Sequence record: MN850615.1
Source: Escherichia phage kvi
Length of the DNA stretch: 64,000 nt
Reading direction: 5' to 3' (one strand)
In this document: piece after piece, positions 44,720-52,800 of the stretch
Position numbering within the stretch: position 1 is the stretch's first letter
Layout: each line of letters opens with the position of its first letter
The notes under the pieces: model-generated
What the model was told of the DNA's origin: nothing
Databases searched by the model: none
Seen by the model: only the letters and a program-made list of their open reading frames with translations
Made by a program: the position numbers and the translations under genes

Positions 44720-45044
44720 CTTTTTGTTCCATGAAAAGCGGTGCTGTTTCTTCTTTCAGTTTAATAACTAGCGCGGAAACTTCATCAAGAAAATCTTTTT
44801 CCATATGAGCAAGCATTGATTTAGAATCTTTGATGACTTTCAAAGAATATTCACTTAGATTTCCTTTTCCTAACAATAATGCAGGATACACACTATGTGG
44901 GATCTCGATTTCATGATATTCGCTCATAGTATAATATTTGTGAATTTTTAAATCTATATTTCTTCGTTGTACGTCCACATCAGCAATGACATACAGAAGT
45001 TCGATTTTATCGCTTTTCTGGGAAAGGGTAGCATTCAAAAACAT
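44715..45044 (-). CDS. Hypothetical protein
   Basis: 109 aa; downstream of promoter at 45074. Confidence 0.5.
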   Translation of the reverse strand: MFLNATLSQKSDKIELLYVIADVDVQRRNIDLKIHKYYTMSEYHEIEIPHSVYPALLLGKGNLSEYSLKVIKDSKSMLAHMEKDFLDEVSALVIKLKEETAPLFMEQKG

Positions 45045-45073
45045 TGTTAATCCTCCTTTGTTTCGATGTGTGT

Positions 45074-45101
45074 ATTATACATTACCGCGCCAGCATGTCA
45101 A
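45074..45101 (-). promoter_or_regulatory. Early promoter (TTGACA-16-TATAAT)
   Basis: rc of TGTCAA..ATTATA. Confidence 0.55.
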
Positions 45102-45163
45102 TATATTTTTCATAAAAATTTAGGCAATAAAAAAGCCTCCCCGAAGGGAGGCTGTAAAATTCA

Positions 45164-46138
45164 TTACATCGCTAACAGAGAGTCCAGGTCATCCAGATCA
45201 GAAGCGGAGGAAGTACCGCCACCCAGGTCCAGAGATGCCATCAGGTCATCAGCGGAAGAATCTAACGCCGTGCTAGCTGCGTTAATACCAACTACAGTGC
45301 TAGCTGCGGTCATACCAGAATCGAATGCATTCATCTGTGCGTCAAAATCGTCAAGCTGGCTGTTAATCGCTGCCGCAGCACTGGAAGCCGCAGCACCAGC
45401 TACCATAGAAACGCCCATAGTTTTCTTAAATTTGGTTTCCAGTTCATCGAACGGTTTAAACTGGCTAGGCGCTACAATCTCACTCAGATCAACCATGTTT
45501 TCCATCAGATATTTCTGATATGCTTCGTCTTCAATTTTCGGAAGCTGTGATTGCTGCATGAAACGAGAATCATCATAGTTCTGGTGTTTATCAACCTTCT
45601 TAGCTTTCAGGAGGAAGTTAGCACCGGAGAACACACAAGTTACATCTACCGGAACTTCGCCCATATCGGTATTCACGTTCACCATCGCAACGATCTTATC
45701 ATAAATTTTCTGACCGAAGCGGAATTTGAATACCTTACCTTCATTTTCTGGCGCTTGAGGATCTTTCAGTACCAGAATATTTGCGTAGTAAGAGGCTTTA
45801 CGCTTAATCAGTTGCCATTCGGTTTTATCGGTATTGTACAGGTCTTTTTCGTTAATATATTTGCACACAGGGCAAGAATCAAAATCACCGTGGGTGCTGG
45901 AGCAGTTTTCCCAATACCATTTACCATTAACTTTGAAGGAATGGTTTACCAGTTTCACAATCGGCAGACCGTCTTCTGTCTTAGACGGCAGGAAGCGAAT
46001 CAGGGCTTCACCGTTACCTGCTGCATCAGTCTTAATCTTCCACTCTTTCGGATCTTCTTTGGAGAAACCGTTGCCACCTTTCAGTGCGGCCAGTTGAGCT
46101 TGCAGTTTGGAGCTATCTTGACGACGAAACATGTTCAT
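45164..46138 (-). CDS. 32: Single-stranded DNA-binding protein gp32
   Basis: 324 aa; [19 protein letters not shown] zinc site, acidic C-terminus. Confidence 0.95.
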
Positions 46139-46198
46139 AATTATACCTCTTTATACATTAACTATTGATTAATTTACGTTTTATACTATATCAGATAC

Positions 46199-46795
46199 TT
46201 AATTGCTTGTCAATACTTTATCAATTATATCTAACAGTTTTGGCTTTCTATTTTCAAATTCTAACATCTCTTCGGGAGAAATGTCAACTACTTCTGTTTT
46301 GTTGAAAAAGTTTGGGTCTATAGCATCAGCAACAAAGTTTCTCGCAAGTGCTGCCGCTTTCTCATGAACATATATTCCCAAATATATCAACTTCTTTCTT
46401 TCGACCTGAATATTGGCAACATATTTACCATCTCGTTTATAAAGACTAACACCGATATATTCAGACGATCGGCCTTTCTGTTTACCCATATTTCTTGAGT
46501 TTTGTTGCTCGTTCGCATCTCTCAAGTTTTCAATCCGATTATCTGTTATAATTCGGTTAACATGGTCAACGTATTTTGGCATGTATCCATGATGCATAAA
46601 GAAAATTATTCTATGCTCTTTATGATGTTTACCATCGATACACACCAATCTGTATCCATGACTAGGATTAACTCCACCCGCTCTAGATCCGACTTTATGC
46701 TTTCTGTTTGTCGATATCTTGCGAATCAGCTTACCGTTATCATATTTAAAGAGTTCATGACAACGAGCATACAATTCAGGATCATATGTTTTCAC
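46199..46795 (-). CDS. HNH homing endonuclease with AP2-like DNA-binding domain
   Basis: 198 aa, GTG start; HNH block (DHVNRIITDNRIENLR) and AP2-like (SEYIGVSLYKRDGKYVANIQ); inserted between 32 and 59. Confidence 0.7.
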   Translation of the reverse strand: MKTYDPELYARCHELFKYDNGKLIRKISTNRKHKVGSRAGGVNPSHGYRLVCIDGKHHKEHRIIFFMHHGYMPKYVDHVNRIITDNRIENLRDANEQQNSRNMGKQKGRSSEYIGVSLYKRDGKYVANIQVERKKLIYLGIYVHEKAAALARNFVADAIDPNFFNKTEVVDISPEEMLEFENRKPKLLDIIDKVLTSN

Positions 46796-47459
46796 CTTTT
46801 AACCTCGATATTTCTTTACACTCTTTAACTACTTTAACAAATAATGCTCTTGCTTTTGCGGCGTCAATAACAAGTAGTTTCTTGTACGCCTTCATTTTAA
46901 CACTATAAGTTTGCCAAATCAAGTCTTTGGCTACCTTGTCGTGTTCGTCGATTATATTTAGAAAGCTATCTAACAACATAAACGACTCAAACGATATAAT
47001 CCGATTTTGCAGTAGTTTAAAGATACCGCTAGTTTCGGTTGCGGGATTGTATGTAATTAGCTCTTTAAGAGTAACCCCGCGTTTCTCTGAGAAGTATACC
47101 AGACTTTTAATGTCATCGTCAAATCGTGTTGCCGCATCAGTGATTTTACCGATGTACTCCATGTAAAACCCGTATGCGTCAACATCGGTGATTTCACCTA
47201 CCCATGCATCGGTATTAGATACCAGATTGCTTAGGAATAGGAAGTATAATTCTCTTAGATTGTACTTTTCCGCTAATTTTGCGAAATAATACTTATCTCT
47301 GCGTTTATTGAATGCGGCATCAGATAACCGCATCCTCCAATTATATTTTACGCAATCATAACGCCCGTTCATATGAGCTTTCATCATGCAATATAACATA
47401 TACACAGATTTAGCATTAATTCGCATATCTGGTTCTGGAGGAAGACGGTTTCTGATCAT
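46782..47459 (-). CDS. 59: Helicase loader gp59
   Basis: 225 aa; KYNWRMRLSDAAFNKRRDKYYF, IISFESFMLLDSFLNIID match T4 gp59. Confidence 0.9.
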   Translation of the reverse strand: MIRNRLPPEPDMRINAKSVYMLYCMMKAHMNGRYDCVKYNWRMRLSDAAFNKRRDKYYFAKLAEKYNLRELYFLFLSNLVSNTDAWVGEITDVDAYGFYMEYIGKITDAATRFDDDIKSLVYFSEKRGVTLKELITYNPATETSGIFKLLQNRIISFESFMLLDSFLNIIDEHDKVAKDLIWQTYSVKMKAYKKLLVIDAAKARALFVKVVKECKEISRLKGENI

Positions 47460-47468
47460 ACATACCCC

Positions 47469-47738
47469 TTAAATATCGAGAGTGTTGGTCGGTTCGTCGA
47501 TCACTCCCTTCCTGAGTGTTCTATTTACTATACATTCTTGTGTGATCTTGTCAATAATGGACACCGGAATATACTTCTGATAGTGACCATATTCGATAGA
47601 GTTTTCCTCTACAAACTGCGTTGTCGCTTCAAGATAAGTCAATCCCTCTTCAACAACCAGTTTTTCGATTGCAAGACCGTTTGCTGTTTTATTCGCGGCT
47701 TTTACCGCATGTTCATTAAGCATTGAACACCCGATCAT
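47469..47738 (-). CDS. 33: Late transcription accessory protein gp33
   Basis: 89 aa (ATG at 47738 or 47723); LTYLEATTQFVEENSI matches T4 gp33. Confidence 0.75.
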   Translation of the reverse strand: MIGCSMLNEHAVKAANKTANGLAIEKLVVEEGLTYLEATTQFVEENSIEYGHYQKYIPVSIIDKITQECIVNRTLRKGVIDEPTNTLDI

Positions 47739-47991
47739 AGAGTTCTACCGCTTCGTCGCGTTCTGCTTCGAAGGTTTCGCGCTGTTGCTGGTGATACAGT
47801 TTAAACAGAATGCCCCACATTTTACCATCTACGCCTAATTCTTCTTTAGCACGCTGTTTGATCTCTTTGATCTTATCGCCATATGCTTCTTGAATGGTTT
47901 TCTGATCGCTGGCTTCTTTAATCAGTTGCGCCAGGGTATTTCCGTGTACATTTTCATCGAATACTACTTTTTCTTTTTTCTGTTCAGTCAT
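47716..47991 (-). CDS. dsbA: DsbA-like dsDNA-binding protein
   Basis: 91 aa; position between 33 and rnh. Confidence 0.7.
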   Translation of the reverse strand: MTEQKKEKVVFDENVHGNTLAQLIKEASDQKTIQEAYGDKIKEIKQRAKEELGVDGKMWGILFKLYHQQQRETFEAERDEAVELYDRVFNA

Positions 47992-47996
47992 AATAT

Positions 47997-48596
47997 TTAA
48001 CCCTCTTTCGTCATTAATTGAAAACCACGTTCAGCTTTTGAAATTTCGCTAGGACTTAAATCGTCACCAACATATTCTAGCATCATTTCTCGGATAATGT
48101 CAAGTGCTTTTTCATCACCTGATTTTAACTCGAACTCAAGTTCATAATGAGCAGTGTTTCCCAATCCTTCGCCTACTTTGCCATAATAGAAAGTGTCTTT
48201 GCACATTTCCACTATACCACAACCCATATCTAGAGTCAATGACTTGCGATATGTCATTACTTGCATTATTGCAGTGATATAGTCGGAGTTTACCCCTAGA
48301 CTATCAATAAAATGGACGAACTCATCCCAATTTGAAAATGTCATTTCCTCGCGGTTGAATAGTCCAGATTCATTATCACCCATTTTGACCATGATCTCTG
48401 ATTTTCTACAGTCAAGTCGTGCATAAATTCCTTTTTGACGTAGCGCATGATCTTCGGTATCATAATAAAATTCGTGTTTTAATATGTTATCTCGGTCTAA
48501 GAGATTGTACCCGTCATACATTGCCACCCACAAATCACAGATGGTTTCGACGCCAATTTGTGAGTGTGCATAGTATTTTAATTCAAGTTCTTTCAT
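47997..48596 (-). CDS. CYTH (triphosphate tunnel metalloenzyme)-like protein
   Basis: 199 aa; N-terminal ELELK (ExExK), YYDTED, C-terminal HYELEFELK. Confidence 0.5.
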   Translation of the reverse strand: MKELELKYYAHSQIGVETICDLWVAMYDGYNLLDRDNILKHEFYYDTEDHALRQKGIYARLDCRKSEIMVKMGDNESGLFNREEMTFSNWDEFVHFIDSLGVNSDYITAIMQVMTYRKSLTLDMGCGIVEMCKDTFYYGKVGEGLGNTAHYELEFELKSGDEKALDIIREMMLEYVGDDLSPSEISKAERGFQLMTKEG

Positions 48597-48606
48597 GTGT
48601 CAACCC

Positions 48607-49554
48607 TTAGAACTCACCAATTTTCTGTAACATTTTAACTAACGCATTTGTTACAAAATAGTTATAAATTTTACCGCGTGGTGCTGGTTTAGATTTTTCC
48701 CATGCTAACAAAATTTCATATTCGATGTTATCAGGAATAAATTCAAAATCAATAAGTTCGCGGTTTTCGTCAAAGCGTCGTGCTTCTTCCTCTGTCATCA
48801 AAGACTTTGGATCTTCGGCATCGAAAATTTGCTCTAACCATTTGGTTGCAATTGGTTTAGCTCGTTCTCCTTCCAGTCGTGAGATAATGAAATCACTACG
48901 GCACTTGATAGAAGCTACACCGTCTTTTGCGTCACCCTTAACACATTTTACCATAAGGTCTTTGTAAGGGCTACCATATTTGCATTTCTTCCACGCTTTC
49001 TGTACTGGCGACCACTGTTTCACGTTTTTGTATTTGTGCAACTGTGTGTAGTCACCATCGCCGGAGTTGATTAGCACCTGGCGACCTTCTACAGAAAACT
49101 TTTTAGTTAATACAGCGATTATATCATCCGCTTCAACTTTGTCAACCTTAATAACGTGATAAGGCATGTTCTCTTTAAACTCTTCGGTGATCTTATTGAT
49201 CGCAGCAAAGATCATCTCCCAATCACGCGGATCTGCGTCTCGTTTTTCCTTACGGTTGCGTTTATAGTAAGGTGCGATATCACGTCGCCAGTAACCTTTG
49301 CTTGAATCAAAGGCAAGTACCGTAATTGGGTATTGCTCTTTGAATTTTGTCATATTATAACGCATGGTGTCAAGGATAAGATGACGGATCATACCTTCAT
49401 TAATAGGATCTTCCGGTTTAAAGGTATGTGAGATAGTAGCAATCATAAGCTGCGACATATCAATCAAATGCACACCTTCCGGCAGTTTATCTTCTGGATC
49501 ATCGAAGAAATCATTAAGTGTAGCGGTCGTTTTTGTAAATGGGTTATACGTCAT
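48607..49554 (-). CDS. rnh: RNase H (FEN-family 5'-3' exonuclease)
   Basis: 315 aa; GYWRRD, VEADDIIAVL, SGDGDYTQLHKYKNVKQWSP match T4 RNase H. Confidence 0.9.
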   Translation of the reverse strand: MTYNPFTKTTATLNDFFDDPEDKLPEGVHLIDMSQLMIATISHTFKPEDPINEGMIRHLILDTMRYNMTKFKEQYPITVLAFDSSKGYWRRDIAPYYKRNRKEKRDADPRDWEMIFAAINKITEEFKENMPYHVIKVDKVEADDIIAVLTKKFSVEGRQVLINSGDGDYTQLHKYKNVKQWSPVQKAWKKCKYGSPYKDLMVKCVKGDAKDGVASIKCRSDFIISRLEGERAKPIATKWLEQIFDAEDPKSLMTEEEARRFDENRELIDFEFIPDNIEYEILLAWEKSKPAPRGKIYNYFVTNALVKMLQKIGEF

Positions 49555-49556
49555 AA

Positions 49557-49742
49557 TTAAGTTCTCTCCACTCTCACAACAACATATTCGCCAAACGAGT
49601 TAGATACTTCACGGTCATACCCGTACTTCTCCATAACTCGCAGAATTGCATTGTTTAATTCGGCGCGGAAATAATTGTAATCCTTATCAGGGATTCTGTC
49701 AACTACCCATTTTGCACCTTCTGACAAATCAACTTTAACCAT
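49557..49742 (-). CDS. Hypothetical protein
   Basis: 61 aa upstream of rnh. Confidence 0.45.
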   Translation of the reverse strand: MVKVDLSEGAKWVVDRIPDKDYNYFRAELNNAILRVMEKYGYDREVSNSFGEYVVVRVERT

Positions 49743-49780
49743 AATATATCATCCTCTTTTGTTTCTATCAAGCCTTATTT

Positions 49781-49788
49781 TATAAATA
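49781..49788 (+). promoter_or_regulatory. Late promoter motif TATAAATA for gene 34
   Basis: Exact TATAAATA 29 nt upstream of gp34 ATG. Confidence 0.5.
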
Positions 49789-49816
49789 TGAACATACTAT
49801 AAAAGGAGACCCAATA

Positions 49817-52800
49817 ATGGCAGATTTTTCTCAACATTTCAAGGCCACATTTGGCTTTGACGCTGGTAATGAAAAGGTCGTCAATGTAGCATTGGCTGAT
49901 AAGAATGTCAACACCGATGCGGTCAACGTTGAATTTTTCAATTACCATAATGGTATTACTCAGTATGACACAACTCGCGGTTATGATCAATACGGAACTA
50001 CAATCTATCAAAACCGTCCGTATTATGCAAAAGAAGATATCACAAAGCCAGCAGGTGATTTTGACCCGACTAAATGGCAAGCACTGCGCACGGACCCACG
50101 TTGGGATTATATTGCAGCAACTTCCGGTGATACTCCTTTACAGTCTGGTGATTATATCGCAGCAGATGGTCAATTTGCAAACTTGACTTTCTCTATGCCA
50201 ACTAAACCAGCAGAGGGAGACACTATAACAGTAAAAGATATCGGTGGCAAGTGTGGTGTTAACGAATTATCGTTCTTGAGTACAGGACATGAGTTTTACC
50301 ATAACGGTAATGTGTACAACCGAAAATGGTATTGCACTACCCCGTATGCAATGAACTATTTCATCTTTGTTCGTAATCGTTGGCATGTTTATCAGACAGG
50401 AACAGAGCCACGCGGTGTGTACGCACAGCCAGCGATTGATGCTATTCAAATGCAGAATGGTGATCAGGTATTTCGTCGTAGTTCGTTGGGTAATATTACC
50501 TTAGTGCTTCCTAAGTTTGCCAACAATGGCGACATGATCCAGACTACAGACCTTGACGGATTAACCGCAACCAACCACGTTACGGTTAAAGTTCATGAGC
50601 ACGCAGAAGAACAATCAATTGGCACGTCCGGTCTAAAAGAGATTATCGGTAAGCGTAGCGGTCATGGTGTATTCATCTTTGACAAGACGGAAAACTTATG
50701 GCGTTTGTGGGATGGTGATCAGTCTGTTCGTCTTAAACCGATCATCGATGACACTCGCTTGCAACCTAATAGCTATGTTGCTGTATTTGGTGATCGTGAT
50801 GTTACTCTGACGCTGCCGACCAATGTCGAGCCGGGTGATCGTATTCAAGTTTCTATGCAGTATATGAACGGAAACCAGAATTGCCGTATTATCACCGCCA
50901 CAGAGGATACAAAAATCCTTATGCAGAAAAACATGGTTCAGTTTCCTAAGCGTAGCGAGTACCCATTCAATGGGACCGATACATGGACGGGAGTATCTGA
51001 ATTATCTTTCAACGCTGCAAATGATTATGTACCTTATCTGGAGTTCTCTTATTCAGAAGGTGATGATGGTAAGAAATACTGGTTGGTGGCACATGCTCAC
51101 CCGATTGTAGAACGAGTAGATCCGACTCGTAAAGATCGTGTTGGTGTAATTGCACTGGCTACCCAGACTGAAACGAATAAAAATCATGAAGATAATCCTA
51201 GCGACGAAGTTGCGGTGACTCCAAAGGTTCTGGCTAATAAAACAGCCAACGAAACTCGACGCGGTATTGCTCGCATTGCGACTCAAGCGGAAACGCATCA
51301 AGATACTGGTTCCAACTTCCTGGATGATGTTATCGTTACGCCTAAAAAGTTAAATGACTGTGTTGCTACCGAAGCCCGTCGTGGTGTGATGGAAATTGCA
51401 ACTCAACATGAAACCAATGAAGGTTTAGACGATACCCGCGCTATTACTCCTAAGAAATTAGAAGAACGTCGCGCTTCCGAAGATCTCGCTGGTATTGCTG
51501 AAATTGTTCAGGCTGGCGGCAGTGCTGCCGCTCGACGTGGCGAAGCTGGTACAGGGATCTATAACATCAATGACCATGCTAAAATTGTTACGCCAAAAAA
51601 CATCAACGAAGTCAAGGCGACCGAAACTTCCCGTGGTGTTGGCTATCTGGCAACTGACGCGGAAGTGCAAGGGGCTACAGAATCAACCCCGCAAGATGCT
51701 TTACTCATCACGACTCGCACGCTAACGAAACGTACTGCTACCGAATCGCGCACTGGTATCGCTGAAATTGCAACTCAGGAAGAAACAAACTTAGGTCAAA
51801 GTGATAACCATATCATCACGCCTAAAAAGCTGCATACTCGCCGCGCAACGGAAACTTTACACGGTTTAGCAGAAATTGCAACTCAGCCGGAATTTGACGC
51901 AGGTCGTGACGATTCTCGCATTTCTACCCCATTGAAGATTAAAACCTTCTTTGAGAATGCACAGCGTTTGAAAGTAGATCCGACTCAGGGGCTTAACCTT
52001 ACTGGTGATTTGTGGCAAGGTATCATGATCAGCGGTCTGGATGCAACCGAAGACACAAAAGGTGTCGCTAAAGTTGCTACTACTCAGCTTACGGATGCGG
52101 GTCAAGATGATACTACAATCATCACGCCTAAAAAGCTGCAAGGCAAAAAGGCAACCGAAGGTAAAGAAGGTATTATCCGAGTTGGTACTCAAGCCGAAAC
52201 CGTGGCTGGTGCACTGGCTAATGTAGCAATTTCTCCGAAGAACTTCAAATATGTTGTTCAGACAGAGGATACATGGAAAGCAACCGAATCGCGTCGTGGC
52301 TTCTTGAAAGTTGCTACTCAGGAAAACTGTTTTGTTGGTGATAATCTGCAAGGTTCTACTCAAGAACTAGGAAACTACCAGCATGACGGAATTGCTGTTA
52401 CCCCGAAAGGATTAAACTACGCACTTGCTAATTTCTTACCTAAGATGGCAACCGCTCAGAATAGTTTGAAATTGGGTAACGTAGAGGCCGCTAAATGGGC
52501 GCGTAGAGACATTGACCAGACCATAGAGAGCAATTACACGTTTAATAAAAAAGTTAACGTGAAGGGCGATTTAGAGTGCTTAAAATCAGGTTCCTTTGAA
52601 ACTCTGTCTGTGACTAAGAACTCGACCGATGTTCCGAGTAATGGTCATCTGGTGTTGGGTGAGCGTGGAGTTGACGGTCACACCGGAATTACTCTGCATG
52701 GCACAACCGCATCGGAAGGCATGAAAAACTCTTGGTCTATTATCGTTGGTGGTACTGGAACAGCGCAAGTTGTTGATAGTGATGCTATCGCTTTCGGTAA

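Follow-up and report, generated by a model that had tools for sequence, protein, structure and literature searches.

A stand-alone YgiF-like CYTH gene at the rnh-dsbA junction of Krischvirus phages, with a variable allele cassette and a probable triphosphatase product

The tunnel domain of Escherichia coli YgiF (433 aa; PDB 5A60/5A61) is the closest described homologue of the phage protein reported here. YgiF is specific for tripolyphosphate (Km 270 μM), requires Mg and is inhibited by Ca. It lacks cyclase activity, leaves ATP, GTP, ITP, PPi and polyP65 intact, and acts only slowly on thiamine triphosphate (ThTP). In its tunnel, metal 1 is held by E160 and the substrate, and metal 2 by E4, E6 and E162. 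Metal 2 activates the water for its attack, the proton is probably donated by R56, and the E6A, E160A and R56A substitutions each impair activity (Martinez 2015). Other CYTH proteins are told apart by their tunnel residues. The W/YxRxR motif is the hallmark of thiamine triphosphatases, in which the aromatic residue stacks on the thiazole ring and both arginines are required. True class IV adenylate cyclases carry HF four residues upstream of ExExK (HFxxxxExExK), a small residue (V/C/L) in place of the first arginine of the xRxR strand, and ExA on strand β8 where hydrolases have ExE (Vogt 2021). NeuTTM, CthTTM and SaTTM are, like the phage protein, stand-alone CYTH proteins; they hydrolyse PPPi with Mg or Mn (some of them also NTPs) by the same catalytic scheme.

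The identification of the phage gene as CYTH/ygiF-like is already known. The GenBank note on the RB49 copy reads "similar to P45267, P30871, HI1598, ygiF", and Nolan et al. (2006) listed RB49ORF244c as "CYTH domain, 0.0026". Several later records give the product an enzyme name, and the family is still of unknown function in PHROGs. No experimental study of the phage CYTH gene turned up in literature searches.

The gene, its family and its neighbourhood

The window analysed here, a 64,000-nucleotide stretch of Escherichia phage kvi (MN850615.1), belongs to Krischvirus, the RB49/Phi1 "pseudo-T-even" group. A first-pass annotation had claimed a 199-aa ORF between dsbA and rnh, and the ORF was found as claimed; its strand, which had gone unstated, is minus (Table 1). 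The motifs quoted for it were all located in the protein: MKELELK (E3-L-E5-L-K7) within the N-terminus MKELELKYY, F43-YYDTED-49 and H150-YELEFELK-158. The gene is separated from rnh by 10 nt and from dsbA by 5 nt.

Table 1. Positions of the CYTH gene, its motifs and nearby features in the window
Feature	Position	Strand	Remarks
CYTH/TTM gene	47997..48596	minus	199-aa stand-alone YgiF-like tunnel domain
Shine-Dalgarno-like AAGGG	48604..48608	minus	Read from sequence; ends 7 nt before the ATG and overlaps the rnh stop codon
rnh (T4-type RNase H / 5'-3' exonuclease)	48607..49554	minus	Upstream neighbour; Pfam RNaseH_C 2.6e-37, 5_3_exonuc_N 4.8e-18
dsbA (dsDNA-binding late-transcription protein)	47716..47991	minus	Downstream neighbour; Pfam Phage_DsbA 5.4e-22
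Variable allele cassette, about codons 1-158 (~480 bp)	48123..48602	minus	Four ancient allele classes swapped on near-identical Krischvirus backbones
Codons 3-7, ExExK (E3, E5, K7)	48576..48590	minus	YgiF E4/E6/K8; part of metal site 2
Codons 58-62, tunnel strand Y58-A-R60-L-D62	48411..48425	minus	R60 = YgiF catalytic R56; Y58 and D62 phage-clade-specific
Codons 152-156, ExExE on strand β8 (E152, E154, E156)	48129..48143	minus	YgiF E158/E160/E162; metal sites 1 and 2
Codons 186-191, SKAERG (K187, R190)	48024..48041	minus	Start of predicted C-terminal plug helix; YgiF S190-K191...R194
Sigma-70-like TTGACA-16-TATAAT, inside rnh	49145-49118	minus	12/12 consensus match
Sigma-70-like site straddling the CYTH start codon	48603-48575	minus	Consensus match; strongest nearby
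Sigma-70-like TTGACA-18-TAGAAT with TG, CYTH 3' tail	48074..48103	minus	Consensus match only; ~110 nt upstream of the dsbA ATG
Mosaic patch, last ~60 codons of rnh	48607-48786	minus	
61-aa ORF between gene 34 and rnh	49557-49742	minus	PHROG 3594, unknown function
HNH + AP2-domain homing-endonuclease gene between genes 32 and 59	46199-46795	minus	Shares 14 nt with the end of gene 59

The CYTH signature that had been read from these motifs was borne out. Pfam CYTH (PF01928), the profile proposed as a check, matched residues 27-191 with 29.5 bits, above its gathering score of 23.2 (E = 8e-7), and a profile built from 18 family members matched the YgiF tunnel domain (PDB 5A60) over its full length (E = 3.7e-13). 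The family profile was needed because a single-sequence phmmer search of PDB gave noise-level matches only (YgiF, E = 1.2). A search of NCBIfam returned nothing useful. The AlphaFold2 model made from the 18-member alignment was confident (pLDDT 92.9, pTM 0.86) and showed a long run of β-strands followed by a C-terminal helix, that is, a predicted eight-stranded antiparallel β-barrel tunnel closed by a plug helix (residues 187-196). Together with the 442-bit match to PHROG 14893, the presence of the gene in 58 of 58 matched records and a dN/dS of at most about 0.2-0.34, the Pfam score and the full-length YgiF match confirm that the ORF is a genuine gene, more than a chance ORF.

Compared with YgiF, the phage protein has neither the linker nor the CHAD polyphosphate-binding domain: no CHAD match was obtained in Pfam at E ≤ 1, and the 199 residues stop at the plug helix. 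The stand-alone form is also frequent in bacteria, where 86 of 147 relatives have 260 aa or fewer. The phage gene also differs from ygiF in sitting in a replication/late-transcription gene cluster. On the minus strand the order is the 61-aa ORF, rnh, the CYTH gene, dsbA, gene 33, gene 59, the HNH endonuclease gene and gene 32, and gene 34 lies on the plus strand, divergent from the rnh/CYTH/dsbA cluster. All same-strand neighbours except the 61-aa ORF have strong Pfam and PHROG support. This small ORF was also seen in Skers, RB49 and metagenomic Krischvirus contigs, and no annotated ORF was found at its position in T4, Bragavirus, Dhakavirus, Karamvirus or Tulanevirus. The HNH + AP2 endonuclease gene is present in the window and Skers and absent from RB49 and the L007 contig; the equivalent slot of T4, between genes 32 and 59, holds the unrelated GIY-YIG endonuclease SegG. 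A scan of 45000-51000 with Rfam found no credible RNA element.

The distribution of the CYTH gene was then compared with that of its neighbour. By tblastn it was found in 58 of 50,697 phage records, all of Krischvirus type, and no recognisable homologue was seen in T4 / Tequatrovirus, so that it does not belong to the T4 core set; dsbA homologues occur in 1403 phage records. In T4 (NC_000866) 8 bp separate dsbA from rnh, in line with the layout given in the first-pass annotation, and the two genes also join directly in Bragavirus, Dhakavirus, Karamvirus and Tulanevirus, so its view of an insertion into a conserved cluster holds. Because dsbA and rnh abut in T4 and these four genera, and because of the 58 against 1403 records, the CYTH gene is a lineage-specific occupant of an otherwise uninterrupted rnh-dsbA junction. 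The idea that this junction is a general insertion hot-spot was rejected, since the genes abut in all five. Over a 2.4-kb stretch the window is 99.2-99.6% identical to FL37, AV108, SAP and TB34. Every recovered copy lies at the same position, in Krischvirus isolates, in metagenomic Krischvirus-type contigs and in three distant uncultured T4-like phages, whose dsbA and gp33 are 67-80% identical to those of the window and whose CYTH protein is 34-50% identical. The fixed position even in these three phages indicates that the rnh-CYTH-dsbA linkage is old, and the CYTH protein changes at roughly four times the rate of the proteins beside it (dN 0.54 vs 0.12-0.14). For the distant relatives P0045 and P0058, IMG/VR searches gave no matches, and their gene context was taken from exact-protein look-ups.

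An exhaustive HMM search of 1.84 billion representatives recovered 3301 relatives, of which three had E ≤ 1e-30, indicating that the phage clade branches off, as a small and divergent group, from a large bacterial YgiF-like family. The clade was monophyletic in a neighbour-joining tree of 155 sequences. The top non-phage matches of the exhaustive search were ~200-aa stand-alone YgiF-like CYTH proteins of Proteobacteria (for example P0044 and P0046; Halomonadaceae, Pseudomonadales), which resemble the phage protein in length and single-domain form and share its ELKSGD and SKAERGY motifs at ~30% identity. They differ in keeping the small-residue-x-R-x-R strand and in being chromosomal, and the phage clade forms a separate branch; no characterised member of this bacterial group was found. 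Six proteobacterial loci were obtained with a two-sequence alignment. P0044, encoded on metagenomic bacterial contigs (L004/L005), was the closest bacterial stand-alone CYTH protein in the first database search. Its gene is divergent, adjoins PhoU_div and a PHO4-family phosphate transporter, and lies directly upstream of an RsmD-like methyltransferase gene, a context that fits a role in phosphate or polyphosphate metabolism.

The minus strand of 46700-50000 carries 24 sigma-70-like matches, against 11.1 ± 2.9 expected, and seven perfect TTGACA -35 boxes lie on the coding strand of this interval. Besides the match inside rnh, further sigma-70-like sites were found upstream of that gene. Transcription from the site that spans the CYTH start codon would begin within the ORF, and this site cannot act as promoter of the CYTH gene. 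The putative promoter in the 3' tail would drive dsbA; a site there is also found in Skers, RB49 and L007, scores 12/12 in L014 and 11/12 in L015, and was not found in L006. No late promoter (TATAAATA) was detected on the CYTH gene strand in the locus. The simplest reading is that the CYTH gene would be transcribed early, with the replication genes.

Active-site residues and the tunnel strand

All active-site residues equivalent to those of YgiF are invariant in the 45 phage-clade sequences and, with few exceptions, kept in the 147 bacterial relatives closest to them. ExExK lies on strand β1 and is invariant in the phage clade and present in 143 of the 147 relatives. The acidic ExE of β8 faces a basic Arg/Lys patch, in which one basic residue is replaced (D62). 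By alignment, K71 corresponds to YgiF K69, R82/E84 to R81/E83 and R117 to R126, and S186, K187 and R190 at the plug helix are invariant. Conservation alternates along the predicted strands, as expected under constraint on the tunnel-facing side. The closest homology is to the YgiF tunnel domain, and the equivalents of its E6, E160 and R56 are kept, placing the protein in the YgiF lineage. Given the invariance of these residues in the phage clade and their conservation in nearly all bacterial relatives, the protein looks catalytically competent as judged from its sequence.

In the proposed mechanism, one Mg2+ or Mn2+ would be held at site 1 by E154 and the substrate, and a second ion, held at site 2 by E3, E5 and E156, would activate the water that attacks the terminal phosphate. 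R60 would act as proton donor to the leaving group, and the products would be orthophosphate and the diphosphate remainder. The default substrate would be inorganic tripolyphosphate (PPPi → PPi + Pi), as for YgiF. It is highly probable that the protein is a hydrolase of the TTM type rather than a cyclase. The combined statement, that it is an active stand-alone TTM of the YgiF lineage with PPPi as default substrate, is the explanation we favour with moderate confidence. Homology, the predicted fold, the conserved catalytic residues, purifying selection, constant synteny and the lack of cyclase signatures are shown by the analysis, whereas activity, substrate, expression timing and role in the infected cell are inferred.

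The strand of residues 58-62 departs from the bacterial pattern. Position 62 is Asp in 44 of the 45 phage-clade sequences and Asn in the other, as against Arg in 143 of the 147 bacterial relatives, and position 58 is Tyr in 42 of the 45 and aromatic in none of the 147. The canonical small-residue-x-R-x-R strand (YgiF G54-L-R56-I-R58) is therefore not found in the phage protein, where Tyr58 replaces G54 and Asp62 replaces R58; the inter-strand helical insert is also shorter than that of YgiF. From strand periodicity, we infer that the Y58 and D62 side chains point the same way as R60, into the tunnel. The match to the thiamine triphosphatase motif W/YxRxR is partial, since Y58 and R60 are present and the second arginine is D62, and similarity to the mammalian 25-kDa thiamine triphosphatase (PDB 3BHD, 5A64) is far below that to YgiF. 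The Tyr58/Asp62 combination is not among the classes discussed in Vogt (2021). In AtTTM3, mutating the equivalent second arginine does not abolish PPPase activity (Martinez 2015), so an Asp at this position need not abolish activity, and may alter which substrate is bound. With Asp62 in place of a tunnel-lining arginine and Tyr58 at the aromatic position of the thiamine triphosphatases, the preferred substrate may not be bare PPPi.

Old alleles on near-identical backbones

The window was compared with Skers (L002), RB49 (L003) and L007, and a variable cassette was delimited within the CYTH gene. Against Skers, DNA identity was 47-75% in the cassette interval, or 47-63% when taken over about 480 bp of the CYTH gene, compared with 97-100% in rnh, dsbA, 33 and 59, and it was back to 98-100% in the last 120 bp of the CYTH gene. 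The four allele classes share 42-60% protein identity over residues 1-150 and 88-100% over residues 151-199. The cassette was saturated in dS (at least 2.3), the flanks had 0.04-0.15, and dN/dS was no higher than ~0.2, indicating that the alleles are much older than the backbones carrying them and have been exchanged by recombination. The pattern is one of long-lived polymorphism under purifying selection. Positive selection in situ for allele divergence was rejected, because cassette dS is saturated and dN/dS does not exceed 0.2-0.34. The cassette has its breakpoints close to two catalytic motifs, MKELELKYY and YELEFELKSGD, and these conserved motifs supply the homology for recombination. A mobile HNH endonuclease 1.2 kb from the CYTH gene could promote local gene conversion.

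The near-identity of the last ~49 codons could have been imposed by an embedded promoter. This was rejected as the main cause, since dS in the tail (0-0.15) equals that of the backbone. In L006, a lineage further removed, these codons show ordinary divergence (58% aa identity, dS 1.8), and the two observations mark them as a recombination flank. A second mosaic patch was seen at the end of rnh. Compared with RB49 and Skers, its dS was 0.45-0.99 against 0.07-0.15 in the rest of rnh, and its dN was ~10-fold higher; compared with the P0042-type contig it was backbone-like. Recombination tracts thus sometimes run from the CYTH cassette into rnh. In vB_EcoM_G2494 (L022; MK327935, positions 601-1196) a 1-nt deletion in CYTH codon 59 has produced two annotated ORFs, and the 130-aa fragment appears in protein databases as P0041 and A0A482GBZ4. 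Unless it is a sequencing error, this frameshift suggests that the gene is dispensable in culture.

Substrate, role and meaning

Under the favoured explanation, early transcription, probably from sigma-70-type promoters within or upstream of rnh, would add to the triphosphatase activity available while phage DNA is replicated. What a PPPase would bring to the phage is the weakest link of this explanation, because the discoverers of YgiF, an enzyme with ~20 copies per cell, doubt its physiological role, and most of the PPPase activity in extracts comes from E. coli pyrophosphatase. The same authors argue that PPi normally keeps pyrophosphatase saturated; in our view, intense phage DNA synthesis would aggravate this. 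Moreover, dGTP triphosphohydrolases, anti-phage enzymes included, release tripolyphosphate (Kornberg 1958, as reported in a paper citing it). It is a reasonable hypothesis that a phage PPPase would clear Mg-chelating tripolyphosphate during replication.

A role in excluding canonical dCTP was also considered. Krischviruses do not carry the usual hmC synthase and glucosyltransferase genes. SAP (OZ034687) and TB34 (OX001802) are 99.96% identical to each other, and the cytosines of SAP are fully modified whereas those of TB34 are canonical. Both are 99.2% identical to the window in the CYTH region, and their CYTH proteins are identical. The exclusion role is therefore unlikely and was rejected, and the CYTH protein is not the determinant of cytosine modification.

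Because of the Tyr58/Asp62 strand, PPPi can be held only tentatively, at slightly under an even chance, to be the main physiological substrate, and a shift to an organic triphosphate, though unlikely, is the main alternative. In this alternative the fold and chemistry are the same and the specificity has moved to an NTP or dNTP, thiamine triphosphate, pppGpp, or a 5'-triphosphorylated immune-signal or primer dinucleotide, with Tyr58 stacking on the organic moiety and Asp62 contacting it; the enzyme would serve counter-defence or nucleotide-pool editing. Y58 and D62 are typical of the phage clade and set it apart from nearly all of the 147 bacterial relatives, the thiamine triphosphatase aromatic at the Y58 position stacks on a thiazole ring, and YgiF itself already acts on ThTP, if slowly, yet the full W/YxRxR motif is missing. 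Phage CYTH and MazG triphosphatases have been proposed in the literature to degrade NTPs; the identical protein of SAP and TB34 speaks against efficient exclusion of canonical dCTP. Deeply diverged alleles on near-identical backbones, in a protein evolving about fourfold faster than its neighbours, form a pattern common at host-phage conflict loci; the alleles, however, show recombination and purifying rather than positive selection, and neither a PADLOC match nor homology to a known anti-defence protein or named defence family was found. A narrower form, in which the phage clade has re-tooled the YgiF tunnel (Tyr58 for stacking, Asp62 for a phosphate-binding arginine) to hydrolyse a conflict-relevant organic triphosphate, is improbable in our estimate. 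Its candidates are a triphosphorylated immune signal or precursor, an alarmone (pppGpp), thiamine triphosphate, or the tripolyphosphate from defensive dGTPases. If it were true, the four ancient allele classes would reflect frequency-dependent selection by host factors that recognise or inhibit the enzyme surface.

An RNA or oligonucleotide 5'-triphosphatase, removing the γ-phosphate from 5'-ppp RNA, is very unlikely. Such an enzyme could act on host mRNA, leading to faster decay, or on pppApC-type replication primers excised by the neighbouring RNase H. Cet1-type enzymes do have the same fold and two-metal chemistry, and the gene is directly downstream of rnh within the replication cluster, but neither an mRNA_triPase family match nor a closest structural similarity to Cet1/Pct1 was obtained. 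We consider slightly less probable still a non-catalytic protein, whether a CYTH-fold ligand sensor, a Med18/Med20-like scaffold or a decaying accessory gene. Mediator Med18 and Med20 are among the fold matches, the protein evolves fast, one isolate carries the frameshift and most records call it a "hypothetical protein". Against this, the metal-binding and catalytic residues are invariant across lineages down to 30% identity, which is unexpected for a scaffold, dN/dS is below 1, and the gene is kept at the same position in 57 of 58 isolates and in the three diverged uncultured lineages.

The least probable reading is a class IV (CyaB-type) adenylate cyclase making cAMP in the infected cell: Pfam CYTH includes CyaB, class IV cyclase structures are significant fold matches, and the AV108, KMB43 and PHB13 records label the gene "adenylate cyclase", but, compared with CyaB/YpAC-IV (PDB 2FJT, 3N10), the phage protein has no HF motif (ExExK starts at residue 3, preceded by M1-K2 only), retains the gate-keeper arginine as an invariant R60, and has E154-F-E156, both Glu invariant, in place of ExA. 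Of the nucleotide-enzyme reading put forward in the first-pass annotation, the CYTH/triphosphatase side is thus supported by the YgiF-lineage match, while the class IV cyclase/cAMP side fails on all three discriminators. Since these fail and YgiF itself has no cyclase activity, the GenBank label is, on the sequence evidence, probably wrong. "Inorganic triphosphatase", used for the Makalu phages, is the better-supported name, and the "adenylate cyclase" labels should read "CYTH-domain triphosphatase, YgiF-like".

Returning to the favoured YgiF-lineage hydrolase, what is new here is the firm assignment to that lineage, the exclusion of the cyclase reading, the clade-specific Tyr58/Asp62 signature and the cassette of ancient alleles. 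In other respects the gene is an accessory one from a family already described, and its identity has been on record for two decades. The phage copy offers a tractable handle on what CYTH/TTM proteins and tripolyphosphate do in bacteria, through its probably early expression, its fixed position across diverged T4-like lineages and the genetics of E. coli. Its interest would grow if the enzyme acts on a conflict-relevant triphosphate.
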